Shown here: in pieces, positions 24,351 through 63,765 of the stretch | How positions within the stretch are numbered: the first letter of the stretch is position 1 | Layout: every line of letters begins with the position of its first letter | NCBI GenBank assembly: GCA_900539865.1 | Contig: UQDS01000003.1 | Location: 10,477 to 74,476, forward strand | DNA: 64,000 bases | Direction: 5' to 3' | From: an uncultured Mollicutes bacterium | GTDB taxonomy: Bacteria; Bacillota_I; Bacilli_A; RFN20; CAG-288 | The notes under the pieces: generated by a model | What the model was told of the DNA's origin: nothing | The model's database searches: none | What the model saw: only the letters and a program-made list of their open reading frames with translations | Made by a program: the position numbers and the translations under genes

Positions 24351-24351
24351 A

Positions 24352-27328: not shown

Positions 27329-27427
27329 GTGCTAAAAAAGAAACTTAAATTTTTTATAAAAATTGTTTATATATATTTTTATCAAATTTAAGCGATTATT
27401 CCGCTATTAAAATAAGGAGGAGAAACT

Positions 27428-29922: not shown

Positions 29923-29927
29923 ACAAG

Positions 29928-31610: not shown

Positions 31611-31628
31611 CAAAGGAGATTAATCAAA

Positions 31629-34184: not shown

Positions 34185-34195
34185 GGAGGTAACCT

Positions 34196-34870: not shown

Positions 34871-35630
34871 ATACAAATCACTTCTTTTACTACTCCCTAT
34901 TCTTTTTTCAGCATCTTGCAGCAAAATCCAAGTCCCAGATAACATCTCTCAGTTCCTGTTCCCCATCAAATTCGAAGAAACAGAAAGAACAACCAAAGAG
35001 ATCAAAGTCAACAACAAGACAATTATCTATGGAAAAGATAACAAAGAAACTGGAAAGGCCGAATATACTATTCTTGCCTCTCGCGGTCAACAAGAAGACT
35101 ATCAGTATACAAAAATTGAAAACTTTTCCGGAAATCAATGTGTCTATGACCAATCCTCTTCTCTATATCTTGCAAAAAAAGAGAGCACACTCACCTATGA
35201 TGCAACAAAACAATGCTATATCTTGACCATCCTTTCCACTGGATTTGTTGATGAAGAACAAAAGAAAGAAGAAACCAAAAGCACTCAAATCAATTACACG
35301 GAAGTTGATTTCCGCGAGCAGATTGATATGAAGCTTTTCTACTCTACTGAAGTTGAAGAGTATAAATTAGGCGGATTATACTATGCGGATTTCTTCAGAC
35401 GAAACCTCAACGCAGTAAAGTACTTTTCCATCCAAGAAGATCAATTCGTTTATAGTGTCATTAATAAACCTTATAAACAAGGTTCTCAAAAGGCGCTCAT
35501 TTCCGAAACGATTAAAATGAATCATTCCGGATTACTTGACTCGCTTTATGTAAAAGTCGTCAACCAAGACACTGGCGACTACAGCATCGGCGAGATGAAC
35601 GCACTCTATAACGAAAATATCCATTCATAA
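34863..35630 (+). CDS. Lipoprotein of unknown function
   Basis: 255 aa with the lipobox LFSASC-SK. Overlaps the previous gene by 8 nt. Confidence 0.6.
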   Translation: MHKYKSLLLLLPILFSASCSKIQVPDNISQFLFPIKFEETERTTKEIKVNNKTIIYGKDNKETGKAEYTILASRGQQEDYQYTKIENFSGNQCVYDQSSSLYLAKKESTLTYDATKQCYILTILSTGFVDEEQKKEETKSTQINYTEVDFREQIDMKLFYSTEVEEYKLGGLYYADFFRRNLNAVKYFSIQEDQFVYSVINKPYKQGSQKALISETIKMNHSGLLDSLYVKVVNQDTGDYSIGEMNALYNENIHS

Positions 35631-36649: not shown

Positions 36650-36668
36650 ATTTAACAGCCTTTCTTTT
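36636..36668. terminator. Bidirectional terminator between the hypothetical gene and uvrB
   Basis: AAAGGCTGTTA-taaatt-TAACAGCCTTT, flanked by A/T runs. Confidence 0.65.
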
Positions 36669-38646
36669 ATAGTTTTGCTTTTAACTCTAAAATTTGATCA
36701 CGTAAACTCGCCGCCGTTTCAAAATCCAAACTTTTGGCAGCTTTATTCATCTCCGTAGTTAAAGACTTAATCAACATCTCCATTTGCTTTCGAGTGAGCT
36801 TAGCATCTGGATTATCTTTGCGTTTCTTATCGTCGATCATCTTGATTGGTTCTTGAATTGCTTTCATGATCGTCTTTGGAACGATACCGTGTTCTTTATT
36901 ATAATTCTCTTGAATCTGACGTCGACGTTTTGTTTCTCGAATAGTGATTTCCATCGCATCTGATATGCGGTCACAATACATGATGACTTTACCATTTGCA
37001 TTTCTGGCTGCGCGTCCTGCAATCTGTGTTAAAGATCGCGCACTTCTTAAAAATCCTTCGCGATCCGCATCTAAGATAGCAACGAGAGAGACTTCCGGAA
37101 TATCAAGACCTTCTCTCAGCAAATTGATGCCGACTAAAACATCGTAAATACCTTTGCGCAATTTATAGATGATTTCAGAGCGCTGAAGTGTCAGTATTTC
37201 ATGTTGTAAATAAGCAACCTTCACATCGTGACTCTTAAAGAAGTCGGTTAAGTTTTCAGCGTCTTTCACTGTCAACGTAATCACCATCACTCTTTCATTT
37301 CGTTTCACTCTCTGCTTGATTTCTTCTAAGACATCATAAACAGGGTTGTTGCTGTTATATCGCACCTCAATAATCGGATCCAATAATCCAGTCGGTCGAA
37401 TGATTTGTTCCACAACTTGATGATTTACTTGGTTCAACTCATAATCACCTGGAGTTGCAGAAGTGCAGATGACATGGTTGATTTTCTTTTCGAATTCTTC
37501 AAATCGCAATGGTCTATTATCCAAAGCAGAAGGAAGACGAAAACCATATTCTACCAAGGTCTCTTTACGAGAACGATCTCCTGAATACATACCGCCGATT
37601 TGAGGAATGGTGACATGGCTTTCATCAATAAACAAAAGGAAATCCTCAGGAAGGTAATCGAATAATGTGTATGGTGTCTCTCCCTCTTTTCTGCCGTCAA
37701 AATGACGTGCATAGTTTTCAATTCCGGCACACATACCAAACTCTTTTAAAGCATCGATATCATGTTCCGTACGCATTTTAAGACGTTCGCTTTCCAAGTA
37801 TTTTCCTTGGCTGTCATAATAAGCGAGACGCTCCACCATTTCTTGATGAATCGTCTTTAACGCTTTTTGAATACGAGCAGTACCCGAGGCGTGTTCATGC
37901 GCAGGGAAAAAGGGAAAATAATCTACCGTATGTAAAACTTCACCTGTGGTCGGTTTGACCATATCAATTTCAGAAATCTCATCAAAATCAGAATAAATTC
38001 GAATGAAATATTCATCGCCGTTAGGCGGATAGATATCCATGACATCACCGCGAATACGAAAACAACCCGGCCCTAGATCGATGTCATTTCTCTTATATTG
38101 AGCAGTGATCAATTTGCTGCTGATCAGCTTGATATCAAATGGTTCTCCCACATGAATTGTGAAAGCCAAATCACGATATTCGTCCGGATCAGAAAGACCA
38201 TATATCGAAGCGACAGAACAAACGACAATCGTATCTCTTCTCTCTAATAGAGAGTTGACCGCACTTGCTCTCATCATTTCAATTTCTTCATTCATCACCA
38301 CCTGTTTATCAATGTATGTATCTGTTTTGGGTAGATAAGCTTCTGGTTGATAAAAATCAAAATTAGAGATGAAATATTCAACTCTATTATGTGGAAACAA
38401 TTCTTTAAACTCTCCGTAAAGTTGAGCAGCTAATGTCTTGTTGTGAACCAAGACCATCGTCGTGCGTTGCGCCTGTTGAATAATATTGGCCATCGTAAAA
38501 GTTTTACCGGTACCTGTCGCACCTTGTAAAACCTGCCATCGCTTGTTCTCTTTGATTCCTTGAACTAATTGTGCAATCGCTTGTGGCTGGTCTCCCGTCG
38601 GAGTATTGTTGGAAACCAGTTCAAAGGGATGTGTATTATCACTCAT
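36667..38646 (-). CDS. uvrB: Excinuclease ABC subunit B
   Basis: 659 aa with GATGTGKTFTMAN, DESHVTIPQ, helicase motifs and a C-terminal UVR domain (FETAASLRDQILELK). Confidence 0.97.
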   Translation of the reverse strand: MSDNTHPFELVSNNTPTGDQPQAIAQLVQGIKENKRWQVLQGATGTGKTFTMANIIQQAQRTTMVLVHNKTLAAQLYGEFKELFPHNRVEYFISNFDFYQPEAYLPKTDTYIDKQVVMNEEIEMMRASAVNSLLERRDTIVVCSVASIYGLSDPDEYRDLAFTIHVGEPFDIKLISSKLITAQYKRNDIDLGPGCFRIRGDVMDIYPPNGDEYFIRIYSDFDEISEIDMVKPTTGEVLHTVDYFPFFPAHEHASGTARIQKALKTIHQEMVERLAYYDSQGKYLESERLKMRTEHDIDALKEFGMCAGIENYARHFDGRKEGETPYTLFDYLPEDFLLFIDESHVTIPQIGGMYSGDRSRKETLVEYGFRLPSALDNRPLRFEEFEKKINHVICTSATPGDYELNQVNHQVVEQIIRPTGLLDPIIEVRYNSNNPVYDVLEEIKQRVKRNERVMVITLTVKDAENLTDFFKSHDVKVAYLQHEILTLQRSEIIYKLRKGIYDVLVGINLLREGLDIPEVSLVAILDADREGFLRSARSLTQIAGRAARNANGKVIMYCDRISDAMEITIRETKRRRQIQENYNKEHGIVPKTIMKAIQEPIKMIDDKKRKDNPDAKLTRKQMEMLIKSLTTEMNKAAKSLDFETAASLRDQILELKAKL

Positions 38647-49900: not shown

Positions 49901-52759
49901 ATGAAAGAAAGCAATGAAACACCGAAGTTAACGCAAGAACCTTTTTCCGCTCACTCTAAAAGCGTAAAAGAGGTCAGCGAACACTTCAACACAGATCCTG
50001 AGAAAGGTTTGACCTCGGAAGAAGCAAGCAAGCGTCTTGCTGACTACGGTCCAAACAAACTCCAGGAAGGAAAGAAGACCCCTTTCATCATCAAGTTCTT
50101 AAAACAATTCGTAGAACCGATGGTCATCGTTCTTCTGATTGCCGCAGCGATCTCTCTTTCTATCTTCGTCGTCAAAGGTGTGACAAACCTCAGCAATGGT
50201 TTAGGATTTACCGCCGATGAAAACACTGAATACATCGACGCTATTGTCATTCTTGCCATTGTCATCATCAACGCCTTAATCGGCGCCATCCAAGAACAGA
50301 AGGCAGAACAATCGTTAGAGGCGCTAAAGAAGCTCTCTACTCCTATGTGCACTGTCAAAAGAGACGACAAGCTCTTCACCATCAAAAGTGAAGAATTGGT
50401 CCCTGGCGACATTGTTGTCTTAGAAGAAGGCAGCATCATCCCTGCTGACTTACGTCTCACTGTCACTGTCGACATGAAGAGCGATGAATCTTCTCTCACT
50501 GGTGAATCTGTCCCTGTGGAAAAGACAGGTAATGTCATCTTAGAAGAAGATACTGTCACAGCAGAAAAAGAAAACATCGCATTCTCCTCCTGTCCGATTT
50601 CTTACGGAAGAGGTGAAGGTATTGTTGTCGGAACCGGTATGAATACCGAAGTCGGTAAGATTGCATCTATGCTTACCGAAGAAAATGACGATGAAACTCC
50701 TCTTCAGAAAAAGTTGGCTGTTTTATCAAAACAATTAGGACTTATTTGTCTCTTTGTTGTCATTGCCACATTCTTAGTTGGCACCATTTGGAACATCATT
50801 CACTGCTTCCAGATGGAAGGCGGATTTAGTTGGACGGAATTCGGATGGCAAACGCTCGATATGTTTGAAGAATCGATTGCCTTGGCTGTCGCTGCTATTC
50901 CGGAAGGATTATCTGCTATTGTCACCATCGCTTTAGCGCTCGGTGTCAACAAGATGGTCAAAGTCAACACAATTGTTAGAAAACTCCCTTCTGTCGAAAC
51001 TTTAGGTAGTGTCACTGTAGTCTGCTCTGATAAGACTGGTACCCTCACCCAAAACAGAATGACTGTCAAAAAGGTCTATGTCAACGGCAAAACCGATGAC
51101 GTTGAAAACTTCAGTCTCGAAACTCCCGAAGTCAACCTTTTAGTTAAAGGTATGATGCTTTGCTCTAACGCATCTATCTCCGGCGACCGCTATGGTGACC
51201 CGACAGAAATCGCTTTATTAGATCACGCTCGTCTCTATCACATCGAAAAAGAAGAGACAGAAAAAACAGAACAACCTCGTATCGATGAGCTTCCCTTTGA
51301 CTCTGTTAGAAAGATGATGTCTGTTGAAAACAAAATCGGTGACAGACGTATCATCTACACCAAAGGTGCTCTCGACTCTATCTTAAAGCACACCGAATAC
51401 ATTCAAATCGACGGCGCGGTTCGTCCGATTACCCAAGAAGATATCGATGCCATCAACGCCGCTTCTAAAGAGATGGCTTCTCAAGCATTCCGTGTCTTAG
51501 CCTTTGCCTATCGTTATCATGAAGATAATGAAAGAATGAGCGAAGAACACCTTGTTTATGTCGGCATGGTCGGTATGATCGACCCGGAAAGAAAAGAAGC
51601 AGGTCCGGCAGTCAGCAAATTCAAAGAAGCTGGCATCCGCACAGTCATGATCACCGGCGACCACAAAGATACCGCCTTTGCTATCGCTAGCAATTTAGGA
51701 ATTGCTGACGATATTTCTCAGTGTTGCTCTGGCGATGAGTTGAACGCACTGACAGAAGAAGAACTCCAAGAAAGAGTTGCTCATACTAATGTCTTTGCTC
51801 GTGTCTCTCCTGAAAATAAAGTTCAAATCGTCAAAGCCTTAAAAGCCAACGGAAACATCGTTTCTATGACTGGTGATGGTGTCAATGACGCACCTTCTCT
51901 CCGCGCTGCCGATATCGGTATTGCTATGGGTATCACCGGCACCGATGTTGCCAAATCCGCAGCAGATATGGTTCTTACCGATGATAACTTCGCCTCTATT
52001 GAAAAAGCAGTAGAAGAAGGTCGTGGTATCTTCTCCAACGTTAAAAAAGCGATTTTCTATCTCTTATCCAGTAACTTCGGCGAAGTCATTGTCATGTTCT
52101 TAACCATCATCTTAGGTTTCCCAACTCCTCTTGCTACCTTACAAATCCTTTGGATCAACTTGATTACTGACTCTCTTCCGGCCATCACCTTAAGTATGGA
52201 TGCAAAAGAAAAAGATATCATGCATCGTAAACCGCGCGATCCGAAAGACGGCGTCTTCTCACACGGTGGTTTCGCCTTCACCTTCGGTTATGGTGTCTTG
52301 ATCTTCATTGTCACCTTCATCGCTTATCTCATCCCTGGCATTTTAGCCTTTACAGGATCTACATTGCCCTTTGCTCCCCAAGTTGATGTCGCCTTTGAAC
52401 AAAGCTATACCGGATTCATCGAATGTCTCAACAACGCTGAAGTTTATCGCGAATCCCAGACTTGGGCATTCACAGTCTTAGGCATGTCGCAAATCTTCCA
52501 CATGATCGGTATGACCGATATCAAGAGAAGCTTTATCCATGTCTTCAAAGACGGAAACTGGATGTTAGCTGTCTCCTTTGTCTTAGGCTTTGCTCTCCAA
52601 ATTGCCGTTACGGAAGTTCCGTTCTTGACACAAGCTTTCTCCACCACCGCCCTTTCTTGGCAAGAGTGGTTCATCTTAGCTGCGATGGCTTCTGCTCCGT
52701 TGATCGCCCACGAAATCATGGCACCGATCTTCCGCAAGAAGAACGCACAGATCATCTAA
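49901..52759 (+). CDS. P2-type cation-transporting ATPase (Ca2+/Mn2+ efflux, PMCA/SERCA-like)
   Basis: 952 aa with TGES, the phosphorylation site CSDKTGTLTQN, MITGDH, the hinge TGDGVNDAPSL and 10 predicted TM segments. Confidence 0.93.
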   Translation: MKESNETPKLTQEPFSAHSKSVKEVSEHFNTDPEKGLTSEEASKRLADYGPNKLQEGKKTPFIIKFLKQFVEPMVIVLLIAAAISLSIFVVKGVTNLSNGLGFTADENTEYIDAIVILAIVIINALIGAIQEQKAEQSLEALKKLSTPMCTVKRDDKLFTIKSEELVPGDIVVLEEGSIIPADLRLTVTVDMKSDESSLTGESVPVEKTGNVILEEDTVTAEKENIAFSSCPISYGRGEGIVVGTGMNTEVGKIASMLTEENDDETPLQKKLAVLSKQLGLICLFVVIATFLVGTIWNIIHCFQMEGGFSWTEFGWQTLDMFEESIALAVAAIPEGLSAIVTIALALGVNKMVKVNTIVRKLPSVETLGSVTVVCSDKTGTLTQNRMTVKKVYVNGKTDDVENFSLETPEVNLLVKGMMLCSNASISGDRYGDPTEIALLDHARLYHIEKEETEKTEQPRIDELPFDSVRKMMSVENKIGDRRIIYTKGALDSILKHTEYIQIDGAVRPITQEDIDAINAASKEMASQAFRVLAFAYRYHEDNERMSEEHLVYVGMVGMIDPERKEAGPAVSKFKEAGIRTVMITGDHKDTAFAIASNLGIADDISQCCSGDELNALTEEELQERVAHTNVFARVSPENKVQIVKALKANGNIVSMTGDGVNDAPSLRAADIGIAMGITGTDVAKSAADMVLTDDNFASIEKAVEEGRGIFSNVKKAIFYLLSSNFGEVIVMFLTIILGFPTPLATLQILWINLITDSLPAITLSMDAKEKDIMHRKPRDPKDGVFSHGGFAFTFGYGVLIFIVTFIAYLIPGILAFTGSTLPFAPQVDVAFEQSYTGFIECLNNAEVYRESQTWAFTVLGMSQIFHMIGMTDIKRSFIHVFKDGNWMLAVSFVLGFALQIAVTEVPFLTQAFSTTALSWQEWFILAAMASAPLIAHEIMAPIFRKKNAQII

Positions 52760-52760
52760 C

Positions 52761-52819
52761 AAAAAACAGCCCTTGGAATTCTCTGCTGTCAAAGGCAGAT
52801 TATTCCGGGCTGCTTTTTT
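52761..52819. terminator. Bidirectional terminator between the ATPase gene and the giant-paralog operon
   Basis: AAAAAACAGCCCTTGGAA...TTCCGGGCTGCTTTTTT, with an inner CTGC/GCAG stem. Confidence 0.6.
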
Positions 52820-55800
52820 ATTGCTTGATTAAAATCTTTTTTGCTTTGACTTCTACAAGCTTTTGCAAAACGAAGAAAAAGAAACGAAGTATATATGAAA
52901 GCAGATCTTGAGCTTTATCAAAGTCAGCTTCTTTCTCTAAATGTAAACGATCCATCAGCACGCTGTAATACTTTGTCAACTCAGCGATGCTTTTCTTTTG
53001 ACGATAGGCAAAGTTCAAAGAGTGATAAATGATTTTAGAATCTTCTTGATACATCAAAAGCAACAGCTTTTTTGCGCGATAAATCAACTCTGTTTCTTCT
53101 GTACAGATTTTGATTTGTTCACTGTAAGAATGCACTAAAAACTCATACATGACTTCATCGGGAAGAAGATAGTGCTTTGTATCTCCGCTCAGTTCTTCCG
53201 CAAGCTTTACATCGATATCATCCAATTCTTCAAAAAGTTCTCTTTTATCTTTCTCCTGCTCTATCGTCGCTCCTTCTAACGCCGGATAAACATAGGATGT
53301 AGGTGCAAGATAAAGACCTTCCTTTACCAGAAGATTTCTCACTTGCATACTATCATAAATCGCATTGAATTGCGGTTGATATAAGCGCGAGAAGCGACCG
53401 GCGTAGGGTAAGCTTTCCTCCGGATATTCTTCGTCGATAAAAGTAAAGTGCTTTTCTAGGTCTTTCTTTGTCAATCTGCGCTTTCTCTTTTTCATCACCG
53501 AGAATAACTCTTTGTAAAAACAATAGGGAATTCCCGTGCTGACAAGGCGTGATACAACGTCTTCTAACGAAGGTGATTCCTGTTGAATTCTATCATTAAA
53601 ACAAGAATTAATAACAAACAACAAAGCTTCCTTGTCACGATTTAAAAACGAAAATTCTTTTCCATCTTTGCTATAAGCATTAAAAATTCTGCCTGGCATA
53701 ACATAGATTTTTCCAAACTTATCAAAGAAATGAACATAATAATCAAGATATGATTTCGGATCTTCTTTCACACCGGTTATATATTCTTCAAAGATGGTTT
53801 GATAGTAAAATATCAAAGCATATACCAATTTATCCTGTGTCGAGGTGGCTTCCTGAAAACTTGCTTTATTCATCAGGAAATCACTTGTTCGTTCTATGTT
53901 GTCTATTGTGAGATTTTCCTGTTCTTGGTTTGGTAAGATCTCTTTTAAAAATGCAATTTCATTTATTGGATTAAGCAAAGAGCTCACCCGTTTTGGAAGC
54001 GCAGTTTTATTTACAAAAAAGTTCAATCCGCTCGGGGGTTGCAAGAAAAAGATTCCCTGCGCTAAGCCTGGATAAACATATTGAGATAACACTTTAAAGT
54101 ACGGATCGTTTTTAAGAAAGAGCTGATGATCTTTACGCTCAAAGATAGAAATACCTTTTTCAAAGAAAACATCGCTTTTAGAAACACAATCAGGCAATCC
54201 AAAGAATTCTGTTAAAGTTCCATTGTGTTTCGACATTTGGAATTCGTTTCCGTAGAATACAAATGTCATTGGAAACTGACCATCTTTAAAAAGGCGTTGC
54301 GAATAGATTTCTTTCAATGCTCCTATTCTATCTTCATCTTGACTGTCCATATAGAAGAAATCTTTGTTTTTGTAAACGACAAAGTTTCTTCCTAAGTTTA
54401 CAAGAGGGAAATTTAAATAAGGGTCATAAAAAGAATCCATGCGGAAAGAAGTCATTTTTTGGTTGAATTTTATCCCTTCGTTGTAAAGATATTTCCCGCT
54501 TTCTTGATCAAACATTTGCATAGTGATGATATAAAACAACATCGCAAAATCAGAAAATTCTAAATCTTCACTTTCAGGGCATTGATAAAAAGCTTCTTTG
54601 ATTGTATAGCCATCTTTCATCAACGAAAAGAGACGCTCAAAAAGAGGTATGATATTATTTTCATCTTGCTTTGAGATTTTCTCTACTACTTGAATGATGG
54701 CAGCATGATCCGATTGTCCTTGTAAAAGATAGGTGATAAAGTCCGTTAAGGAGGACTGAATTCTCTTTGCGTTTCCTCTAGTTAAATCAAGGAAGCTTTG
54801 CTTCTTACCAGTATAAACAAAGAAAAAATCTGTGTTGAAACGATTCCCTAAACAAAAAGAGTAGTTATAAAATAAACCGTTTGTATTTTTTAAATAACGA
54901 GCGATATTGCCTTCTTTTAATCCTTCCGAACTTGTGAGACCATCTCTCGAGATACATGGTAAAACAATACCACAATCACGATAGCTTCCTTCTTCGCTTT
55001 CAAAAGGAAGCAAAGACAACATCTGCGATGCATTGCCACGCATAAAATCGAATTTTTTCAAATACTCATAAGCAGGATAAGGAAGACCCATCATTTTTAA
55101 AAATACATGTGGCATGTAAGCAAATTCTAAATGGCGATCAAAATACTTTTTCACCGTGTCAAAAGCTAACATCATCTTCTTTTTATCCCCTTCTAAAAGG
55201 ACATAAGATTCTGGGTAATAATCGCAAACAACCTGATCTTCCTCTTTGCGGAAGTGATGATAATCAATGCCAAACATATCAAAAGACAAACCGTAATACA
55301 CGTAACCAAAATAAGCACCTGGTGTTTTTAAGTCATGATCTAAAATATCAATAGATAACAAAGATTCAAACTGATATTCTTTGTAGAAAAATTCGTTGAT
55401 CAATTTTCTTGCTATGGATAAAAAGTAGCGTCTCATGCAAAGTCTGAATTCTTTTTCGGGCAGATCTTTTGCGATAGAATCCAGTGGTTCAAATGCGATA
55501 CGAACTTGTTCTTCTAAAGATAAGCTCTCCATTCTACCAAAAGTTCTTTTAAAAGCAACTCTATTAAAAATATATGGATTTGTACAAAAGTCCATAAAGA
55601 GCTTTACTGAATTTTCTTTGTTTTTTAACAAATAAGGTAATAGTTTTTCAACATCGATACGAACCGGATAATAATTAAAATTATCCGCTTCTGGGTTGAG
55701 AACTCTCTCTAAATTTTGTAAGAAGAACCCTTTAGAAATAAGATAGTTTATGCACCCGATCAACGCATATCTATCGCTATATAGAATTTTAGGATTGTTG

Positions 55801-56204
55801 TCCTCTTTATCTAAGAATCCATAACCGCGATTTAAGCCTTCTTCAAAGTGAATGCGCGATAGAATCTCCGCGGGCGGGATAGAAAATACATCCTTGCTCG
55901 TTTTACTTGTTCTTGTTAAAAGAGAAGAAGGCAAACCTAACACTTGTGATAAAACCTCTTGTACTGCTTCTGTTGTCTTCATCGTCTGGTTGTTGTTTGT
56001 GAAAATAGGATAATATTCTTTGCTGAAAAATTTCTCGTAAAAACGGATACGCTCCACCAGCGATTCTTTGTCTTCTATCGCCATATGAAATACGCCGACA
56101 TCATCTAAATAAGCATCGTAAAAAGCGCCAGAGAATTCTTTTTTATATTTTGTGTCGTGGCTAAAGGAAATATCTGTTGTGAATAATTGTGCTGTAAATT
56201 CCAT
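52818..56204 (-). CDS. Giant orphan protein B (1,128 aa), paralog of the upstream gene; four ~270-aa repeats; function unknown
   Basis: Uninterrupted 3.4-kb ORF starting 4 nt after the upstream stop. Homologous to protein A along its length. Recurring GLP-centred motif at aa 90, 373, 669 and 891. No signal peptide, TM segment or known catalytic motif. Confidence 0.7.
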   Translation of the reverse strand: MEFTAQLFTTDISFSHDTKYKKEFSGAFYDAYLDDVGVFHMAIEDKESLVERIRFYEKFFSKEYYPIFTNNNQTMKTTEAVQEVLSQVLGLPSSLLTRTSKTSKDVFSIPPAEILSRIHFEEGLNRGYGFLDKEDNNPKILYSDRYALIGCINYLISKGFFLQNLERVLNPEADNFNYYPVRIDVEKLLPYLLKNKENSVKLFMDFCTNPYIFNRVAFKRTFGRMESLSLEEQVRIAFEPLDSIAKDLPEKEFRLCMRRYFLSIARKLINEFFYKEYQFESLLSIDILDHDLKTPGAYFGYVYYGLSFDMFGIDYHHFRKEEDQVVCDYYPESYVLLEGDKKKMMLAFDTVKKYFDRHLEFAYMPHVFLKMMGLPYPAYEYLKKFDFMRGNASQMLSLLPFESEEGSYRDCGIVLPCISRDGLTSSEGLKEGNIARYLKNTNGLFYNYSFCLGNRFNTDFFFVYTGKKQSFLDLTRGNAKRIQSSLTDFITYLLQGQSDHAAIIQVVEKISKQDENNIIPLFERLFSLMKDGYTIKEAFYQCPESEDLEFSDFAMLFYIITMQMFDQESGKYLYNEGIKFNQKMTSFRMDSFYDPYLNFPLVNLGRNFVVYKNKDFFYMDSQDEDRIGALKEIYSQRLFKDGQFPMTFVFYGNEFQMSKHNGTLTEFFGLPDCVSKSDVFFEKGISIFERKDHQLFLKNDPYFKVLSQYVYPGLAQGIFFLQPPSGLNFFVNKTALPKRVSSLLNPINEIAFLKEILPNQEQENLTIDNIERTSDFLMNKASFQEATSTQDKLVYALIFYYQTIFEEYITGVKEDPKSYLDYYVHFFDKFGKIYVMPGRIFNAYSKDGKEFSFLNRDKEALLFVINSCFNDRIQQESPSLEDVVSRLVSTGIPYCFYKELFSVMKKRKRRLTKKDLEKHFTFIDEEYPEESLPYAGRFSRLYQPQFNAIYDSMQVRNLLVKEGLYLAPTSYVYPALEGATIEQEKDKRELFEELDDIDVKLAEELSGDTKHYLLPDEVMYEFLVHSYSEQIKICTEETELIYRAKKLLLLMYQEDSKIIYHSLNFAYRQKKSIAELTKYYSVLMDRLHLEKEADFDKAQDLLSYILRFFFFVLQKLVEVKAKKILIKQ

Positions 56205-56208
56205 CGTA

Positions 56209-59200
56209 TTATTTCCCCACTTTCATTTCCAAATCTAAATAAGCGTCAATGATGTCCTCTTCAAGAAGACGTAAGAAACAGACAATCACTTGTAATACTT
56301 CATCTAAAATACCAGGACGTATTCTCTTTGCCTCCTTAAATGTTGTTAAGACAAGTTCTCTTGCGCTCTTAGAATTGTATACATTATCATTCGCTTTAAA
56401 AAAGATATCAGGATCTTGCAAATAGCTGTCCATCAGAAGGGCGTTTGCTCTCGCGAGGGCTTCTGTATTAAAGTCTGTGTGTTCTTTTAAGAAAGAAAAG
56501 TTTTCATCCATCAGCAATTTAGAGGGACGAAAAGCGTGTAACAAGGCATCTGGCATTTTTTGAGCTTGCGAGAAATAAATGAATGCGAGGTTGTTATCGA
56601 AAGGTCGCAGATTTAAATCAAAACGATATTCTTTATTCAAATAAAATGTTCGTATATCAAAAGGAGAAATAAAGAATATACCGTCTTTGATCATGCGTTC
56701 TTTGACAAAGCGAAGCTCTGCCTTATTTTCTTCTTTATACGGATAACATTTGCGGAACATCTCTTCATAAGCACAGTGATTAATATTTGTGCAATTGCGA
56801 CAAATTTCTTCTTTAAAAGAAAGTTTCGACATGAAATCTTTGATATTATTTGTAGAAAAATCGAAATCTTTCAAACGATAAATCACCGGATAAGGTAGAC
56901 CGATGGTCGTCAACAAAAAAGCTGTCCTAACTTCGCTAGGAAGAACTTCGTTGTTTGAGCTATTCAAACACTCTTCTAAACTCATTTCAATCGCATCGCG
57001 ATCACATTCGCAAAAATAATATTCTCCTTGAACTGGATCTCTTGTATACGCATTGAATACGTTTCCTAAAAGAATATACGGATAAGGAAGACGCACATTA
57101 TAATCCATATTCAAAGAGAATTCATGGAAACTAGAAGAAACAATATTTTCAGATACATACAACGAATAAGCGACTTCCAACAATTTATAAACGTACAAAA
57201 GACAATTGAAAATTCGCTCATGCTCAAAGACAAGCGGATATAATTCCTTTGTGCAAGAAAACATCATTTTTCGAATGATTTTTATATCCAATTCCAAAAA
57301 GGAACATAAATCATCGATATAATCTTGAACATCTGCATTATCTTGCAAAGCGGATAAGACAAGACAGGCCAACATGTTCTTATCCACAATCAAATAAGGT
57401 TTAAGAATGTCATCCATGTGTTCTATGTCTACGTCAATAAGAGAATAATATGTCCCTTTTTTTAGTTTTTGACCGACATCGTCAATTGTTTTTTTCAAAG
57501 AAATTGTCTGATTGACAAACATTCCGTGGAGACAGGCGTTGGCTCGAATATAGGTCAAGTAAACGTTATAATCTTCTCCTTCGTTAAAATCCAACACATC
57601 ATGATTGCTCGGCTTGCTTCCCAAACAAGCATGACAAATATGGTCTTCAAAAGAAAGCTGAGGCATGATTTCCTCTGTTGGATCGATGTTGTTTGTTACA
57701 TCCCATGGCAAACCAAGTTCACGGAGTATGAATTGATTTTTACTTTCAATATTCCTATTTTTCTCTATCTCATCATATTTTTTACCCAAAAATTCAATCT
57801 TCTTTTCAATCGCTTTTCTTTCGCTCATACAAAGATGAGGTTTTCCAAAATAAGACTTGCGGAAAGAGTAACACAACAAGCCCTTTGTCACATACGGATA
57901 AGGAAGATTCGGTTCATAAGAATTATCCTTTTTAGGAACAACATCTAAAATTGCCATCGAAGCGATATTCTTTGTTTGGTTGATTTCTTTTCTGCTTTCT
58001 ACCTTCGCGATGAAGAAGGGATACACCAGCAAATAAGAAAAGAAATCTAATAAAGATTCAGAAAGAGAAAGCACTAAATCCAAGCGAGACAAAAGAATTT
58101 CAACGACATCCTTAAGGGAACGATATTTAAACAGGGAATAAAAATAGGAGCACGCTCTATTTTGACTTGCTTGATCAATCAAAGAAAGCCGACATTCTAA
58201 ATCCGGTTCATAGACAAGATGACGATAGAGAAGATAAGAAGGGAGAATATCTTCTACCAAGGAACACTCTTCTTCAAAAAGATGTTTCAACCATTTGCTT
58301 CTTTCACGAGGGAAAATATTGATATAAACTTCCTTCTTTTGGTTCTCTTCAAAAAAAGCTTGCAGCGGATAACATAAGAAGCCTTGATTTAAAAGATATC
58401 GTTCGAACAACACGAAGTGATTTTCTTCCTCCGAAGGCGCATAACTATAAAACAAATCAAATCTTTTACAAGAGATGTAGGTGAAATCTTTATCAATTTT
58501 TTTACTAAAAGGAAGTCTTTTTAAAATGTCATCTAAGGTGAAATCGACAAGATCTTTCACATAAGAAAAGCCTTCATAAGGAAGACACATTCTCGCATAA
58601 ATGTTAAGAATATCATGGTTTCCATATGTTTCGATCAATTGTGACAATGATTCACGAATGCGTTTTTTATCACTGTAAGAGAAGACAAAATGTTCTTTAT
58701 CTTGCGAATACATCTCCCCATGGAAAGAAGAAATAGAATAGATAGAAAGATCTGAATAAATTTTATTTGGTGTTAAATATGATGTTTTGGTCGTTAATTT
58801 ATTCAACTTTTCCAAACAATATTGGTCATATAATGTATTGATGATCGAGGCGATATACTGGCGTAAAAGATATGCGTATTTTTTCTCAAACACCGGATCA
58901 CCATTAATTTGATTCAATTCCGGATCAAAGTATCCGTTGATAAAGTAAGAAACTCTTCTTGCCAAAGAGAAGCAATCGAAATCCTTCATCAATTTGACCA
59001 TCTTCTCATCATATGTTCTGCACAAAAAATCGATGGTAAGTCTCTGACTACCGCTCTCTAGATATAACTTTTTTAAATCATCCGAAAAGCGCGCTTCGTC
59101 AAAAAAGATCGGAATGGTGTTATTCTCTTCTTCCACAAAAGGTTTCGTCTCATCATAAAGGAAGTAAACACCTCTAGATAAGCAGTATAATCTAAAGTCG

Positions 59201-59607
59201 TCCGCATACCATTTACATCCGTAAAAATTCGCATATTGCATATAACAATCTTTTTTCAATGTAGAAAGGTCGCTTCTAAAATTCAACTGCGAAAGAATAT
59301 CATAGTGTAAGTCTAATTGATCAAACAAAAGAGGGGGAAGCCCCAAAATTTGTTTGAGTACTTCTCTCTCTGATGTCGGTTTATTCGTAAAATATTTTCC
59401 GTCATAAACGGGATAATTTCTTTGCGGTTTGATCTGATTTTCGTAAAAAGAAAGGCTTGCTTTGATGGAGTCAAAATCTTCAATAGAGAGAAAGATATTA
59501 TCTTCGTTGTCTACGAAAGCAACATGAAAGAGGCCAAAAAGCGCCTTCTTATAGACAAGAGAGTAACTGATCATCAATTCGCTCTGTTGAAAAAAACGAT
59601 ATCCCAT
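56209..59607 (-). CDS. Giant orphan protein A (1,132 aa); four ~270-aa repeats; function unknown
   Basis: Uninterrupted 3.4-kb ORF with RBS AGAGGAA 8 nt upstream. GLP-centred motif at aa 89, 341, 632 and 903. CxxC pairs occur only in repeats 3 and 4 (ICHAC aa 657-661, ICRNC aa 935-939). Confidence 0.7.
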   Translation of the reverse strand: MGYRFFQQSELMISYSLVYKKALFGLFHVAFVDNEDNIFLSIEDFDSIKASLSFYENQIKPQRNYPVYDGKYFTNKPTSEREVLKQILGLPPLLFDQLDLHYDILSQLNFRSDLSTLKKDCYMQYANFYGCKWYADDFRLYCLSRGVYFLYDETKPFVEEENNTIPIFFDEARFSDDLKKLYLESGSQRLTIDFLCRTYDEKMVKLMKDFDCFSLARRVSYFINGYFDPELNQINGDPVFEKKYAYLLRQYIASIINTLYDQYCLEKLNKLTTKTSYLTPNKIYSDLSIYSISSFHGEMYSQDKEHFVFSYSDKKRIRESLSQLIETYGNHDILNIYARMCLPYEGFSYVKDLVDFTLDDILKRLPFSKKIDKDFTYISCKRFDLFYSYAPSEEENHFVLFERYLLNQGFLCYPLQAFFEENQKKEVYINIFPRERSKWLKHLFEEECSLVEDILPSYLLYRHLVYEPDLECRLSLIDQASQNRACSYFYSLFKYRSLKDVVEILLSRLDLVLSLSESLLDFFSYLLVYPFFIAKVESRKEINQTKNIASMAILDVVPKKDNSYEPNLPYPYVTKGLLCYSFRKSYFGKPHLCMSERKAIEKKIEFLGKKYDEIEKNRNIESKNQFILRELGLPWDVTNNIDPTEEIMPQLSFEDHICHACLGSKPSNHDVLDFNEGEDYNVYLTYIRANACLHGMFVNQTISLKKTIDDVGQKLKKGTYYSLIDVDIEHMDDILKPYLIVDKNMLACLVLSALQDNADVQDYIDDLCSFLELDIKIIRKMMFSCTKELYPLVFEHERIFNCLLYVYKLLEVAYSLYVSENIVSSSFHEFSLNMDYNVRLPYPYILLGNVFNAYTRDPVQGEYYFCECDRDAIEMSLEECLNSSNNEVLPSEVRTAFLLTTIGLPYPVIYRLKDFDFSTNNIKDFMSKLSFKEEICRNCTNINHCAYEEMFRKCYPYKEENKAELRFVKERMIKDGIFFISPFDIRTFYLNKEYRFDLNLRPFDNNLAFIYFSQAQKMPDALLHAFRPSKLLMDENFSFLKEHTDFNTEALARANALLMDSYLQDPDIFFKANDNVYNSKSARELVLTTFKEAKRIRPGILDEVLQVIVCFLRLLEEDIIDAYLDLEMKVGK

Positions 59608-59623
59608 ATACTATTCCTCTACT

Positions 59624-61225
59624 TTACTCAAACATGATCGTGCAACTATCGGACTTAATATCTCCTATCGTAAAGTCAAACAATGGTTTAGAACCATCAT
59701 CAAATTTGAAGTTTTGATAAACATCTGAGAAACGATCACCTTTTTTAAACAGCGACTGATTATTTGCATAGCCGGTTAAGCCGCCTTGTATCTTACTTCC
59801 GGTTGCCGGAAGAAGAGATACCAAACGGCCGCGGTAATACTGCATACCGCGATCTTTGATTGTTTGATCGATAGAGTACGAATAAGTATTGCTGTAAAGA
59901 GGCATGAAAATAGAATTATAATCGTTCTGGCTGGCAAGAGGGATTTTATCATAGGCGCAACCATCCCAAGCGACTTGCGTATTGGAAACGGCTTTTAACT
60001 TACCTACTCTCGCATTGACGTGATATACCAAAACACCCGTATCTGTATAAGTGTTCAAAGACATTCCCGGGAAAGTAGAGTCTTTTTGATTGAGTCCTGT
60101 TGGTGTGTAATATTCTAAAAGAAGATATTCATCATAGGGGGTGTAGTTATAATCCATTCCCGATGTATTAACACTCGACGCAATAGGAATCAAGAAAGAT
60201 TCTCCGGCTTTTTGTGCTTTCAAGGTCAAAACCGGACCATTTAAATCTAAATATTCTTTTGAGACTAATGTCGGTGTGTTCCAACCCAAAAGGTATTTTG
60301 AAAAAGCACAATGATCTCCGATATTGAAGTCCATCATATCGACACCACCCATCGGGGTATCAAAATTATTGCTGTTGTTGTAATCGTAAGAATAGTAATC
60401 ATCTAAACCAAGAAGATGACCTGTCTCATGAATAAACGTATGCGCATCGGCAACATTTTCAGAACCACCGAAAGAGCTATAATCGAGTTCTCTTAAAAAG
60501 TCGACGCTTGCCCAAGCATAATTGCAAACTTTATAACCGTTGAAAGACGCGTTGGAATGAGCCCATGTAGTATAAGCCCAAAACGCATCGGAATGAGCGT
60601 TAGAAGAAGGGGAATAAACCATCCAAACAGCATCAAGATATCCGTCCTTGTCGGTATCGTAAGAAGATAAATCAACGCTGGTTTGATCTGCTAAAGTCTT
60701 CATCGCACCTTCTAAAATAAGGTCGGTATATGTTATTCCATTGCTAGCATATTTGTCATAATTTCTTTGAAGTTCTGCCGTTGTCTGATTCAAAGCAATC
60801 ACAGGTGCAACTTCGCCAGTAATATTCAATTTACCGCCGCTCGATTTTTTATAAAAAGAAGAGACGGATTCCCATCCTGTTTGTTCGCTTTCTCCAAAAA
60901 ATCCGTTTTGGATCAACCGCAATTCCTTTTGTGAGAAAACATCGTCTTTTGTCTGAATCGGAACAACCAAAATCTTACGATCACCTGTCGAAGGTAAATA
61001 ACGATAATCTAATTGGGCACCCATGTTCTTCACATTGAGGTTTTCTTTGGCGTCCTTATTTGTGTAGGTCGGGGTTTTATAGTATCCCTCTACCACAGGC
61101 CCGGTATAATTTCCTTCCGTGTTCGAACTTGTATGAGAGATATCCAGATAGAAGCAGGAAGTTGTTAACGGAAGAATAGAAAAAAGGGCTAACAACATTG
61201 CTATTTTTTTTGTTTTTTGATACAT
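59624..61225 (-). CDS. M6-like (immune inhibitor A-type) zinc metalloprotease lipoprotein
   Basis: 533 aa with signal peptide and lipobox LPLTTSC. The N-terminal KILVVPIQTKDD and the zinc site FIHETGHLLGLDDYY resemble the M6-family metalloprotease domain. RBS GGAG. Confidence 0.7.
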   Translation of the reverse strand: MYQKTKKIAMLLALFSILPLTTSCFYLDISHTSSNTEGNYTGPVVEGYYKTPTYTNKDAKENLNVKNMGAQLDYRYLPSTGDRKILVVPIQTKDDVFSQKELRLIQNGFFGESEQTGWESVSSFYKKSSGGKLNITGEVAPVIALNQTTAELQRNYDKYASNGITYTDLILEGAMKTLADQTSVDLSSYDTDKDGYLDAVWMVYSPSSNAHSDAFWAYTTWAHSNASFNGYKVCNYAWASVDFLRELDYSSFGGSENVADAHTFIHETGHLLGLDDYYSYDYNNSNNFDTPMGGVDMMDFNIGDHCAFSKYLLGWNTPTLVSKEYLDLNGPVLTLKAQKAGESFLIPIASSVNTSGMDYNYTPYDEYLLLEYYTPTGLNQKDSTFPGMSLNTYTDTGVLVYHVNARVGKLKAVSNTQVAWDGCAYDKIPLASQNDYNSIFMPLYSNTYSYSIDQTIKDRGMQYYRGRLVSLLPATGSKIQGGLTGYANNQSLFKKGDRFSDVYQNFKFDDGSKPLFDFTIGDIKSDSCTIMFE

Positions 61226-61227
61226 AA

Positions 61228-61572
61228 TTAATCTCCGTAATCAGATCCTCGCGATTCCGGTTGAATCAATACTTTTGCTTGATCTGCCACATCCATAGCA
61301 GTTAAGAAAATCGCGTCCTCTGCATCGACGAGAGGATTGTCTTCTTGACCGACAAAAACAACCTTGCGATTGCGTTTTACAATTTCGTCCATCGTATCTA
61401 AAAGAGTCTGATAAGACTCTGGTCTTTGCATGCGATAACCTTGTAAATAAGTATAGAATTGAGGCTCGATATAAAAAATAGATCCGTCTTCATTTTGATA
61501 ACAAGTCGCAAAACGATTGCGAAGATCAATCAATATTTGTCTATCTGCCCATTCGGTGTATTTATGTTCCAT
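61228..61572 (-). CDS. Hypothetical 114-aa cytoplasmic protein, first gene of the operon
   Basis: The ORF ends 2 nt before the lipoprotein ATG. No recognisable motif. Confidence 0.5.
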   Translation of the reverse strand: MEHKYTEWADRQILIDLRNRFATCYQNEDGSIFYIEPQFYTYLQGYRMQRPESYQTLLDTMDEIVKRNRKVVFVGQEDNPLVDAEDAIFLTAMDVADQAKVLIQPESRGSDYGD

Positions 61573-61598
61573 AGTAAAATCTCTTTTCTGTCGTTAAT

Positions 61599-61607
61599 AT
61601 TATAACA
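61599..61607 (-). promoter_or_regulatory. Extended -10 promoter element for the 114aa-M6-giant operon
   Basis: The minus strand reads TGTTATAAT, ~27 nt upstream of the ATG at 61572. Confidence 0.4.
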
Positions 61608-61656
61608 TGTTCATGAATTATTTTGTTTTGTACAATATTTAGCTTTATAAAGAGAT

Positions 61657-61685
61657 AATTAAAATTGCCTCTAAAAGAGGCAATA
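61657..61685 (-). terminator. Rho-independent terminator ending the sirtuin unit
   Basis: On the minus strand, TTGCCTCT-ttt-AGAGGCAA is followed by TTTTAATT. Confidence 0.65.
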
Positions 61686-61689
61686 AACT

Positions 61690-62034
61690 TTAATTTTGTC
61701 CAGCGACATAACAAGCTAACAAAGACAACGCTTCCGAAAGATAACGATAATCATTCTTCAAAGATTCCATTTTCACTTGATCAACACACGCTAGTGCAAT
61801 ATCAGAACAATCCCTAAAATATTTTCTCATTTTGGGATTTAACACTTCCGTATTTTCACACTCTGTTAAAGCTTTTTTTAAGCAATCCATCTTAGACTCA
61901 TAAGAAAAGTCCTCCGTAAAAGGTTTCTTTCCTTTCTGTTTGCGCTTCATCAACTTTATCGTCATTGCAATCAAAGGAGCTGCACTTGAAATAATATCGA
62001 AATCATCCGTCGTTTTTTTCTTCCAGGAAAACAT
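61690..62034 (-). CDS. Hypothetical 114-aa protein
   Basis: The ORF starts 3 nt after the upstream stop. Predicted helical and Cys-containing. No recognisable motif. Confidence 0.45.
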   Translation of the reverse strand: MFSWKKKTTDDFDIISSAAPLIAMTIKLMKRKQKGKKPFTEDFSYESKMDCLKKALTECENTEVLNPKMRKYFRDCSDIALACVDQVKMESLKNDYRYLSEALSLLACYVAGQN

Positions 62035-62037
62035 ACC

Positions 62038-62499
62038 CTACTCCTTTCTTTCGCAAAGCGAAATATCATGCATCACACGTTTATAAGAAGAAGGACAGTC
62101 CTCTCTCTCTAAAAGAACACTGCTCGACTCTAATAATGTTTTGATCAGAAAAGAAAAATTCAATTCTACCAAACAATACAAATTCATTTTATTGCTAACT
62201 TTTAAGACGGAGAGAATCAGCGCCAGATGTTCAAAAAAACTCTCATATTTTTCTAAGATAGCTACCGCCCCTTCATAATCGATGTAATCATCTGTGTGCG
62301 TGGTGATATAAAAAAGTTTTGCATCTTCTTTAGACAAATCTGCAACTTCTTCTTTTAATAAAGAAATTTCTTTGTCTAAATTCACTGTGTTTTTCAATAT
62401 AATATTTAATAAATTATTTAACGAAATCAAACATGCACTACCGCAAAAATAAGGAGAATCCTCTGCGATGAGCTCTGTTAATGAAAGACTTTTTTTCAT
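62038..62499 (-). CDS. Hypothetical 153-aa protein
   Basis: Its ATG overlaps the sirtuin stop (ATGA at 62496-62499). Predicted helical. No recognisable motif. Confidence 0.45.
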   Translation of the reverse strand: MKKSLSLTELIAEDSPYFCGSACLISLNNLLNIILKNTVNLDKEISLLKEEVADLSKEDAKLFYITTHTDDYIDYEGAVAILEKYESFFEHLALILSVLKVSNKMNLYCLVELNFSFLIKTLLESSSVLLEREDCPSSYKRVMHDISLCERKE

Positions 62500-63245
62500 A
62501 TGTGTAACCTCTGAAATAATTCGCCAACCTTTTGATGAATAACAATTTTAGCATGTTGATCTGCACCGCTTGGCTCTTTGTTGATCAACACCATATTATC
62601 ACCTTGAAAATAATTGATAAAACCACAGGCTGGATAAACAACAAGTGATGTCCCCGCTACAATCAGCAAATCCGCATTGCTGATTTTCATAATAGCATCC
62701 GTAATTACATTTTCATCCAACGCCTCTTCGTATAAGACAACATCTGGTTTAATAACACCGCCACAAAGAGGACATCTGGGGATGATTCCTGGACTGTCTA
62801 AAACAAATTGTGCACTGTACTGTTCGTGACAATCCATACAGTGATTTCGATGAATTGATCCGTGCAATTCTATCACTTTTTTACTCCCTGCCAATTGGTG
62901 AAGTCCGTCGATATTTTGTGTGATGACAGCATCTAATTTTCCTGCTTTTTCCAATTTGGCCAAATATTGATGTGCAGCGTTTGGCTTCTTATCTAATAAA
63001 AGCATCTTATCCTTGTAAAACCGAAAAAACTCTTCCGGATACAAGCGAAAGAACGAATGAGAAAGAATGACTTCTGGATCGTATTGATAGTGCTGATGAT
63101 AAAGCCCATCCTTGCTGCGAAAATCGGGTATGCCAGATTCAGTAGATACTCCTGCGCCACCAAAAAAGACAATCCGGTTGTTTTTGTCGATGAGCTCTTG
63201 CAACATATTGGCATCATTTTGAATCTCACTCATTCTCATTCCCAT
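62496..63245 (-). CDS. cobB: NAD-dependent protein deacylase (canonical sirtuin)
   Basis: 249 aa with GAGVSTESGIPDFRS, TQNIDGLH, the catalytic ELHGS and the Zn ribbon CMDC...CPLCGG. Confidence 0.9.
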   Translation of the reverse strand: MGMRMSEIQNDANMLQELIDKNNRIVFFGGAGVSTESGIPDFRSKDGLYHQHYQYDPEVILSHSFFRLYPEEFFRFYKDKMLLLDKKPNAAHQYLAKLEKAGKLDAVITQNIDGLHQLAGSKKVIELHGSIHRNHCMDCHEQYSAQFVLDSPGIIPRCPLCGGVIKPDVVLYEEALDENVITDAIMKISNADLLIVAGTSLVVYPACGFINYFQGDNMVLINKEPSGADQHAKIVIHQKVGELFQRLHI

Positions 63246-63333
63246 CCTTTTTATATTATATAACTTTCATAAAAAAAGAGATGAACTCTTGTCTTATATG
63301 AGAGAATTCATCTCTTACTAAATCGATAAAAAA

Positions 63334-63765
63334 TTAAATCAAATTTGCCCAATTCGCTATCAACAAGGAAGAAAACACCACGCTGAAGGAAAAACCAATA
63401 ACACCGATAATAAACGCAGCTTTTGCCAATTTACTATCTTTTAAAATCTTTCTTGATCCATTGATTGCACCAAATCCAAATATGACTCCGATAAAAGCAG
63501 TCATAAAGACGAGAGAAAGAATTGCAAAGACAAAAGAAAGAACAGCGGAAGATTTTGTCGATGGATTTATGGTTGTTTTGGTGTCTTTTGGTTCAAACAC
63601 CGCTTCTTCTACATGTTTATATCTAGGCGAGTACGTTGGCATCCCTTTTGCTAAATCGTAATCTTTATTTTTATTCATCGTGTTATTATCTGAGAATTTT
63701 TCACCGCAATAAGGGCAAAAAACATCATCATCTCTCAATTCGCTACCGCACTTTCTGCAATACAT
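63334..63765 (-). CDS. Zinc-ribbon membrane protein (DUF4190-like C-terminus)
   Basis: 143 aa. The N-terminal YCRKCGSEL...FCPYCGEKF zinc ribbon is followed by two TM helices. Confidence 0.6.
   Translation of the reverse strand: MYCRKCGSELRDDDVFCPYCGEKFSDNNTMNKNKDYDLAKGMPTYSPRYKHVEEAVFEPKDTKTTINPSTKSSAVLSFVFAILSLVFMTAFIGVIFGFGAINGSRKILKDSKLAKAAFIIGVIGFSFSVVFSSLLIANWANLI

Follow-up and report, generated by a model that had tools for sequence, protein, structure and literature searches.

Two giant paralogs with a module resembling part of phage nuclease-like proteins in a conserved operon of uncultured gut Bacilli

The operon and its boundaries

We analysed a four-gene operon on the minus strand of a 64,000-nucleotide (nt) stretch of DNA from an uncultured Mollicutes bacterium (GTDB lineage Bacteria; Bacillota_I; Bacilli_A; RFN20; CAG-288; GenBank assembly GCA_900539865.1, contig UQDS01000003.1, positions 10,477–74,476 of the forward strand), the whole of which is referred to below as the window. 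The operon encodes a protein of 114 amino acids (aa), termed s114, a predicted lipoprotein of the peptidase M6 type and two giant proteins, gA and gB, for which we found a build of four tandem modules each, as well as a profile-level match to a phage-type family of nuclease-like proteins. A preliminary description, made from the sequence alone, had placed four open reading frames (ORFs) here in a single tight cassette. All four are present, with intergenic gaps of 2, 16 and 4 nt between s114, the M6 gene, gA and gB, and the tightness of the cassette was borne out both by junctions on the scale of a few nt and by a gene order conserved in relatives. The genes and the elements that bound them are as follows.

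61228–61572, minus strand: ORF of s114 (114 aa)
59624–61225, minus strand: ORF of the M6-type lipoprotein (533 aa)
56209–59607, minus strand: ORF of giant A, gA (1,132 aa)
52818–56204, minus strand: ORF of giant B, gB (1,128 aa)
61599–61607, minus strand: extended −10 element TGTTATAAT, a consensus match only and a candidate promoter
61664–61684, minus strand: intrinsic terminator (9-bp stem and T-run) of the upstream unit of sir2, 153-aa and 114-aa genes
52755–52825, both strands: bidirectional intrinsic terminator (−30.4 kcal/mol, z = −5.74), with an A-run 5′ and a U-run 3′

The extended −10 element noted beforehand does read as TGTTATAAT on the minus strand; it stands 27 nt upstream of the ATG of s114 and downstream of the 61664–61684 hairpin. 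The flanking terminators that had been proposed were likewise found, as a hairpin with a T-run at one end and a fold with A and U runs at the other. The first of these bounds the operon upstream in this genome, whilst the second is common to the operon and the convergent P-type ATPase gene (49901–52759, plus strand). The upstream boundary is not universal, in that the sir2 unit abuts s114 with zero gap in two related loci (L124 and L125). A GAGG ribosome-binding site lies 5′ of gA, the GC content of the operon is ordinary for the window, and the chance of 1,130 codons without a stop at the local base composition is ∼6e-35. A terminator scan of 52400–63500 returned 17 hairpin-plus-T sites, where shuffled sequences gave 7.0 ± 2.6; other than 61664–61684 these are weak stems of 5–9 bp, several of which lie inside the coding sequence of the giants, on the coding strand. 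No RNA family was matched in an Rfam scan of 52–64 kb.

The giants and their phage-type relatives

That the two giants are paralogs had been proposed from two pairs of similar peptides, and this was confirmed by alignments of both sequences and profiles. gA and gB matched in BLASTP at E = 6e-10, in an alignment that includes both peptide pairs, and their profiles (compared with hhalign) were colinear over 1,026 columns at E = 1e-48. Register-shifted alignments, offset by whole modules, were obtained as well, at probabilities of 74–98%. When the quarters of gA were compared with one another in hhalign, five of the six pairs matched at 74–99% (modules 3 and 4 at 99%, 1 and 3 at 96.6%, 2 and 4 at 95.5%), with modules 2 and 3 at 20%. 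The matches among the quarters of gA, together with the whole-module offsets between gA and gB, show a build of four tandem modules of ∼280 aa in each giant, and the earlier label of repeat proteins also stands. The duplication of the four-module gene predates the radiation of the clade. The modules are laid out as listed here.

58753–59607, minus strand: gA module 1 (aa 1–285), zinc ligands lost, the part best conserved with gB
57928–58752, minus strand: gA module 2 (aa 286–560), zinc ligands lost
57118–57927, minus strand: gA module 3 (aa 561–830), with an LPYPYV motif and a zinc-type site encoded in 57604–57837
56209–57117, minus strand: gA module 4 (aa 831–1132), with a full CxC...CxxC encoded in 56773–57018
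∼55335–56204, 54435–55334, 53730–54434 and 52818–53729, minus strand: gB modules, colinear with gA

The predicted zinc ligands are kept only in module 3 (C593, C595, C658, H659 and C661) and module 4 (C866, C868, C936 and C939) of gA, and are lost in the remaining six of the eight modules. Those of module 4 are present in 87–100% of gA orthologs. In module 3, codon 595 (57823–57825), which specifies the second Cys of the CxC in 77% of gA orthologs, encodes Ser here, and the site in this protein may be weakened or may rely on His659. Conservation is also spread unevenly over the two giants, with 119 columns that are at least 90% conserved in gA and 33 in gB. The alignment of gB has no conserved Cys column, and the residues that it does conserve are mostly structural ones (Gly, Pro and aromatic). 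Modules 1 and 2 of gA carry a set of invariant polar residues, namely E153, T154, R189, D193, D211, K274, K381 and R382.

Neither giant has a segment of transmembrane level when scanned in 19-residue windows (maximum Kyte–Doolittle mean 1.57), in agreement with the preliminary description. The AlphaFold2 (AF2) model of gA is confident, with a predicted local distance difference test (pLDDT) value of 88.2 and a predicted template-modelling (pTM) score of 0.75, and shows an alpha/beta module that opens with a four-stranded beta meander; helices with a conserved (L)GLP turn come next, and then a small beta element and a bundle of helices. Searching with this model in Foldseek, as had been suggested, returned no match at E ≤ 0.001 in either PDB or BFVD. 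Single-sequence scans of the giants against Pfam, NCBIfam, PADLOC and PHROGs gave nothing, and 31 gA orthologs compared with Pfam yielded only scattered chance matches, such as DUF7309 in two of them. Profile searches of the PDB with gA, with the phage-type family introduced below and with s114 gave nothing significant, as the matches to a thioredoxin CxxC and to DnaA domain I had E ≥ 0.04. No family or system described in the libraries searched, and no solved fold in them, accommodates the giants or s114, and within these libraries the earlier remark that no described system resembles the operon holds true.

The giants had also been said to contain no recognisable domains; this is so for the single-sequence scans, but a profile search did uncover a module, present four times over, that is common to phage nuclease-like proteins. 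Using the gA profile in a hidden Markov model (HMM) search of 1.84 billion representative proteins, we obtained 249 matches, which include orthologs of gA and gB and, in addition, many proteins of ∼200–670 aa that align to profile positions ∼565–700, where module 3 begins. Roughly half of the latter bear the C-terminal motif ELD(I/V)(Y/F)I...(I/F)EYQGxQH, and in an alignment of 27 family members C35, C37, C100, H101 and C103 are invariant, together with the C-terminal E, D, EYQG and QH. In hhalign, module 3 of gA matched this phage-type family (A3) at 99.7% (E = 6e-27, ∼160 columns) and module 4 matched it at 98.3%. Reciprocally, an HMM of the N-terminal domain of the family matched every gA ortholog twice, with independent E values of 1e-21 to 1e-24 in module 3 and 1e-9 to 1e-11 in module 4. 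The part of the phage-type proteins that is homologous to modules 3 and 4 is thus their N-terminal 160–170 residues (LPYPxV...LCSC...LCHxCN...YGWYI), in which the same CxC...CxxC pattern is found. An HMM of the C-terminal nuclease domain of the family, on the other hand, found no gA, gB, s114 or M6 ortholog below 1e-3, and the regular expression ELD...EYQGxQH occurs in none of these orthologs.

The family corresponds to phrog_19778 (PHROG 19778), with E values down to 1e-134, and this uncharacterised PHROG is the only relative of the giants in the libraries searched. The C-terminal domain of the family gives further matches, namely to PHROGs with annotations as HNH, homing or intron-encoded nucleases and, weakly, to the Pfam domain DUF2726, a member of the PD-(D/E)xK superfamily (PMC3424549). 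In a prophage of Clostridium algidicarnis a family member (WP_216111822.1) is encoded immediately 5′ of the small terminase subunit; gp29 of the Clostridium tetani phage phiCT19406A (AJA42719.1) has the same placement beside the terminase, as annotated, and SPbeta-like phages of Staphylococcus carry a longer version of the protein. Terminase-associated phage endonucleases are HNH proteins whose genes adjoin those of terminase. The single-module proteins of phrog_19778 resemble these in their nuclease-type domain and in their position directly upstream of the small terminase subunit, but are PD-(D/E)xK-like rather than HNH and are known from sequence, whilst the giants have no nuclease domain of any kind. 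The giants further differ from phrog_19778 in possessing four modules each, and eight in total, where the phage-type protein has one; in lacking its PD-(D/E)xK/DUF2726-like C-terminal domain; and in being chromosomal rather than phage-borne. In viral contigs the nuclease domain occurs in hundreds of copies, about six copies match over the full length or nearly so, and no giant was found. The link between the giants and phages exists at the profile level only, because a tblastn search with modules 3–4 of gA against phage records found nothing.

In other proteins the module is fused to TerB_N and to CpXC and, weakly and under the Pfam cut-off, to HRDC. In an organism of 27% GC (L113:1952–4966) there is a 580-aa protein of two zinc-intact modules, and 4 nt downstream of it a gene with GGPGTGKS, DEAH and an N-terminal D...ELK that is, by eye, a P-loop nuclease-helicase. 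At another locus (L122:889–5257) a 484-aa protein, of whose two modules one is zinc-intact and the other degenerate, belongs to a co-directional cluster that also contains an unknown 60-aa gene, an unknown 258-aa protein and a 658-aa protein with HEILH and a vWA-like DxSGS (judged by eye), the last of these preceding the two-module protein; upstream of this cluster is a divergent gene of the XRE-type helix-turn-helix class. A conserved pairing of a metalloprotease with the module was considered for this cluster and rejected, as hhalign revealed no relation between the 658-aa protein and the M6 gene, and the 258-aa protein next to it lacks statistical support as a module. Also rejected, as an intermediate form of the giants, was a 645-aa protein of two modules (P0220) encoded beside a convergent P-type ATPase gene on a 4-kb contig, which is probably a truncated gB ortholog.

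Conservation of the cassette and its two smaller products

Orthologs of gA fall into 31 clusters of 1,116–1,142 aa, all from metagenomes or metagenome-assembled genomes (MAGs), and those of gB into 17 clusters that are more divergent; the giant orthologs are intact, with lengths steady at ∼1,100–1,170 aa. When one genome of each GTDB species was scanned, 29 loci were obtained; all of them are in uncultured Bacilli from gut, rumen or digester and two are labelled Ca. Enterosoma, which has been placed in GTDB order RFN20, family CAG-288 (PMC8035907). This family is predicted to be without peptidoglycan (PMC10868615; PMC8035907). The operon thus characterises a single clade of Bacilli with small genomes from gut and rumen, made up of relatives of Ca. 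Enterosoma. The order s114, M6, gA, gB was recovered by local BLAST in almost every one of the 31 loci identified with gA. An independent scan that started from s114 gave 35 metagenome loci, and every s114 homologue of at least 62% identity with enough downstream DNA is then followed by M6, gA and gB. Overall, cassette order is kept in ∼60 related loci; it is also intact around the most divergent gA and gB relatives, and despite different flanking genes in L001, L002, L024, L117 and L124. The comparison of gene neighbourhoods that the preliminary description had proposed therefore found the four genes still linked in relatives and their reading frames undecayed. Junctions within the cassette are of a few nt or overlapping across loci, with a spacing of only about −4 to +10 nt between gA and gB that would be compatible with translational coupling. 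Identities to the window across loci, along with ratios of non-synonymous to synonymous substitution rates (dN/dS) from eight ortholog pairs with unsaturated synonymous sites, are given below.

s114: identity 63–84% (49% in L030); dN/dS 0.014–0.06
M6: identity 44–54%; dN/dS 0.04–0.06
gA: identity 28–40%; dN/dS 0.04–0.12
gB: identity 24–38%; dN/dS 0.10–0.17
sir2, upstream neighbour: identity 60–75%
P-type ATPase, downstream neighbour: identity 64–74%

From these identities, conservation within the block is highest for s114 and lowest for gB. All four genes are functional and under purifying selection, with gB relaxed relative to gA but without overall positive selection. Purifying selection had at first been argued from the length of the open frames; it is now upheld by intact orthologs of steady length and by low dN/dS. 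The dN/dS comparison between the paralogs themselves, which had been suggested as a check, was uninformative, since synonymous sites are saturated between gA and gB, as they also are between the window and its closest relative, and it is the eight ortholog pairs that reveal the selection.

In most loci the cassette has syntenic neighbours, with sir2 on its upstream side and the ATPase gene on its downstream side. The upstream unit (61690–63245, minus strand) specifies a Sir2-type deacetylase and unknown proteins of 153 and 114 aa and is syntenic in most relatives, with a single ORF of ∼235–270 aa replacing the 153-aa and 114-aa genes in roughly one-third of them. No relative of gA was found in the viral contigs of IMG/VR, and no mobile-element genes flank the cassette. 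The locus is a fixed chromosomal site that is vertically inherited, and not a mobile defence island. Among the other genes of the window (7275–10115, minus strand; 36667–38646, minus strand; 24271–35630, plus strand) are UvrA, UvrB, a cluster for malto-oligosaccharide uptake and degradation, a YfhO-type membrane protein and an S41 peptidase; these ordinary chromosomal genes are consistent with a core-genome setting for the operon. The window also encodes, at 17508–22106 on the plus strand and with no evident operon link, a 1,532-aa protein with DUF4011, an AAA_11/AAA_12 helicase and a REase_MTES_1575 (PD-(D/E)xK) nuclease. Helicase-nucleases of the DUF4011/REase_MTES_1575 kind are often found in conflict contexts.

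The small protein s114 is acidic (isoelectric point, pI, 4.5), is predicted to be cytoplasmic and has only one Cys. Its homologues make up 72 protein clusters of 61–99% identity, all of them hypothetical, and 60 of its 114 columns are at least 90% conserved. Its C-terminal tail, SRGSDYGD, encoded by the last eight codons (61228–61251), is invariant and is identical even in a homologue of just 36% overall identity; in the AF2 model of the protein (pLDDT 89.7, pTM 0.82) this tail is of low confidence (disordered). Nothing was found for s114 in Pfam, NCBIfam, PADLOC or PHROGs, and there was no significant match to the PDB either by fold (Foldseek, E ≤ 0.001) or by sequence profile. The candidate explanation that s114 is a split-off nuclease domain was rejected: its top Foldseek matches, EndoMS, EcoO109I and Bax1, which have the restriction-endonuclease fold, gave E ≥ 0.15 and a template-modelling score < 0.3, and hhalign against both the phage family and gA found nothing. 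More distant homologues of s114, with identities of 61, 43 and 36%, are solitary genes with neither M6 nor giants beside them (L126:359–709, L127, L161:809–1150 and L162:380–718). At L162 a convergent gene resembles a RimK-type ATP-grasp ligase, as judged by eye in this single case.

In its small size, its acidity and its terminal tail of acidic, aromatic, Gly and acidic residues (SDYGD vs EDWGE), s114 is reminiscent of the carrier proteins LysW and ArgW, which present substrates via an EDWGE tail (PMC10433800). We view this as a resemblance only, as s114 has no sequence or fold relationship to these carriers, has no zinc ribbon and ends in SDYGD rather than EDWGE. Moreover, neither a LysX-type ligase nor any pathway gene was seen in the cassette, and there is no ATP-grasp gene among the Pfam-labelled genes in the cassette neighbourhoods.

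For the 533-aa product of the second gene, the assignment as an M6-type lipoprotein was verified through two motifs.

61154–61168, minus strand: lipobox LTTSC (Cys24)
60416–60430, minus strand: HETGH zinc site (aa 266–270)

The protein is predicted to be exported, with an N-terminal hydrophobic segment and then the lipobox, and at aa 266–278 it reads HETGHLLGLDDYY, in which HExxH is followed by GxxD(E)Y. Both Cys24 and HETGHxxGLDDYY are conserved at ≥ 90% across 30 orthologs. The Pfam model PF05547 (Peptidase_M6) scored 24.5 bits, just above its cut-off of 22, and TIGR03296 scored 88 bits (E = 1e-24), under its cut-off of 110.8; a sequence search of the PDB gave no match at E ≤ 1. The protein is predicted to be a surface protease and a divergent member of peptidase M6. 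It shares HETGHxxGLDDYY, the PF05547 match and an export signal with the immune inhibitor A (InhA) type of this family, but is lipobox-anchored rather than freely secreted, and its gene sits in an operon with those of cytoplasmic proteins.

A binding platform and the alternatives

The reading that we favour, albeit tentatively, is that the giants form a nuclease-less binding platform derived from a phage-type module, within a vertically inherited operon whose M6 protein acts separately. gA and gB would both be non-catalytic cytoplasmic binding platforms, probably joined in a hetero-complex that displays eight pseudo-repeats, with gA as its conserved core and gB as a degenerate, fast-evolving partner. 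Their likeliest ligand would be a nucleic acid or a nucleic-acid-handling protein, because the module in phages accompanies a DNA-cutting domain. s114 would be co-expressed with the giants and may dock via its tail, whilst the M6 lipoprotein would work apart from them at the cell surface, with only the transcript in common. A bolder version, which strikes us as rather doubtful, is that a phage-derived zinc module was captured by an RFN20-type ancestor, multiplied four-fold and then duplicated, which would give an eight-module gA–gB machine, served by s114, for a clade-essential handling of DNA or phage components.

A number of observations weigh against the binding platform. Its ligand, the complex of gA, gB and s114 and the binding of zinc are all putative. 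The giants are acidic (pI ∼5.2–5.5) and their modules are without net positive charge, which does not speak for DNA binding, and charge analysis of whole modules is uninformative as a test of such binding. The invariant polar residues of gA could represent an unrecognised active site. s114 need not be a dedicated subunit of the giants, because its distant homologues occur without them. In one rumen MAG (L030), gA begins 3 nt after s114 (L030:7117–10875), and no M6 gene is present anywhere on its 16.8-kb contig; the s114 of this locus is the one with 49% identity. Conservation of gene order may also stem in part from a low rate of genome rearrangement, because the neighbouring genes are syntenic as well. 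Weakest of all is the functional coupling of a surface protease to the giants that the preliminary description had raised: the genes are indeed linked in ∼60 loci, but L030 is without M6 and distant s114 homologues are found without giants.

We consider it unlikely that the operon is an anti-phage or conflict system, in which a nuclease-less array would sense phage components such as terminase, nuclease or DNA ends, or act as their decoy, and block infection by binding to them. This view is kept alive by the phage ancestry of the module, which has as its only detectable relatives nuclease-like proteins of phages or prophages, encoded beside terminase; the other contexts of the module are of conflict type too (TerB_N, CpXC, the weak HRDC and the by-eye helicase of L113), and gB is the fastest-evolving gene of the block. 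It is weakened because the cassette occupies a fixed, syntenic position and, far from being patchy, was present in all of the examined relatives that have giants; because PADLOC-DB v2 has no match for s114, M6, gA or gB at E ≤ 1 and the cassette is without an intracellular effector domain; and because the dN/dS of gB, at ∼0.1–0.17, gives no sign of an arms race. There are, furthermore, no mobile-element genes alongside and no copy was found in viral contigs, such that the conflict module suggested at the outset draws no positive support from distribution. Quite improbable, in our view, is that the genes are functionally unrelated and merely have a transcript in common within a compact genome, with M6 acting in nutrition or host interaction, s114 in some general role and the giants in a role of their own. 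The predicted extracellular location of M6 as opposed to the cytoplasmic one of the other products would fit this, as would the lack of M6 in L030, the solitary s114 homologues of more distant lineages, the shift in operon boundary where the sir2 unit abuts s114 (L124/L125) and the synteny of the neighbours; set against it are a four-gene order kept in ∼60 loci, different flanks included, and junctions that are of a few nt or overlapping.

The lineage-specific scaffold that had been offered as the other option fits better than a conflict module, but in the form of an internal scaffold or cytoskeleton-like lattice, for a clade possibly without a cell wall, we regard it as very improbable. Whilst the cassette is confined to RFN20-type Bacilli, CAG-288 (including Ca. 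Enterosoma) is predicted to be without peptidoglycan (PMC10868615; PMC8035907), the paralogs are large and pseudo-repetitive with mostly Gly, Pro and aromatic residues conserved in gB, and the pTM of 0.75 for gA suggests that its modules are arranged in a defined way, neither a coiled-coil nor a fold known to form filaments is present, Foldseek gave no match to cytoskeletal proteins, and the zinc sites and polar residues of gA suggest specific binding rather than bulk structure. Finally, gA, possibly with gB, might be a novel enzyme acting on a substrate that is tethered to or presented by the s114 tail, in the manner of LysW/ArgW. To this we would give hardly any weight: the invariant polar residues in modules 1–2 of gA, the invariant, terminal and disordered SRGSDYGD tail, the documented EDWGE tail of the carriers (PMC10433800) and the single, by-eye RimK-type ATP-grasp-like gene convergent at L162 speak in its favour, but no catalytic motif or fold match was found, the tail differs from EDWGE, the LysW zinc ribbon is absent from s114, and the Pfam-labelled genes around the cassette include no ATP-grasp gene.

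RFN20-type Bacilli are common uncultured members of the gut community in humans, chickens and ruminants, and their biology is known from genomes alone. The ∼7 kb of conserved, selected coding sequence described here, which carries no functional label, points to a clade-specific process missed by annotation. As judged from sequence comparison, the operon appears new at the level of both protein family and system. The link to the phage module is the first experimental handle on it, as it defines a new domain family with single modules in phages and four-module arrays in cellular hosts, and suggests nucleic-acid or packaging-machinery partners as the first ligands. It also illustrates cleanly how a domain of phage type can become a large protein of the cell. 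The confident AF2 model without neighbours in PDB or BFVD suggests a new fold and, if the bolder version is true, the eight-module machine would constitute a kind of cellular system not described before, whose fold has no counterpart in the PDB.

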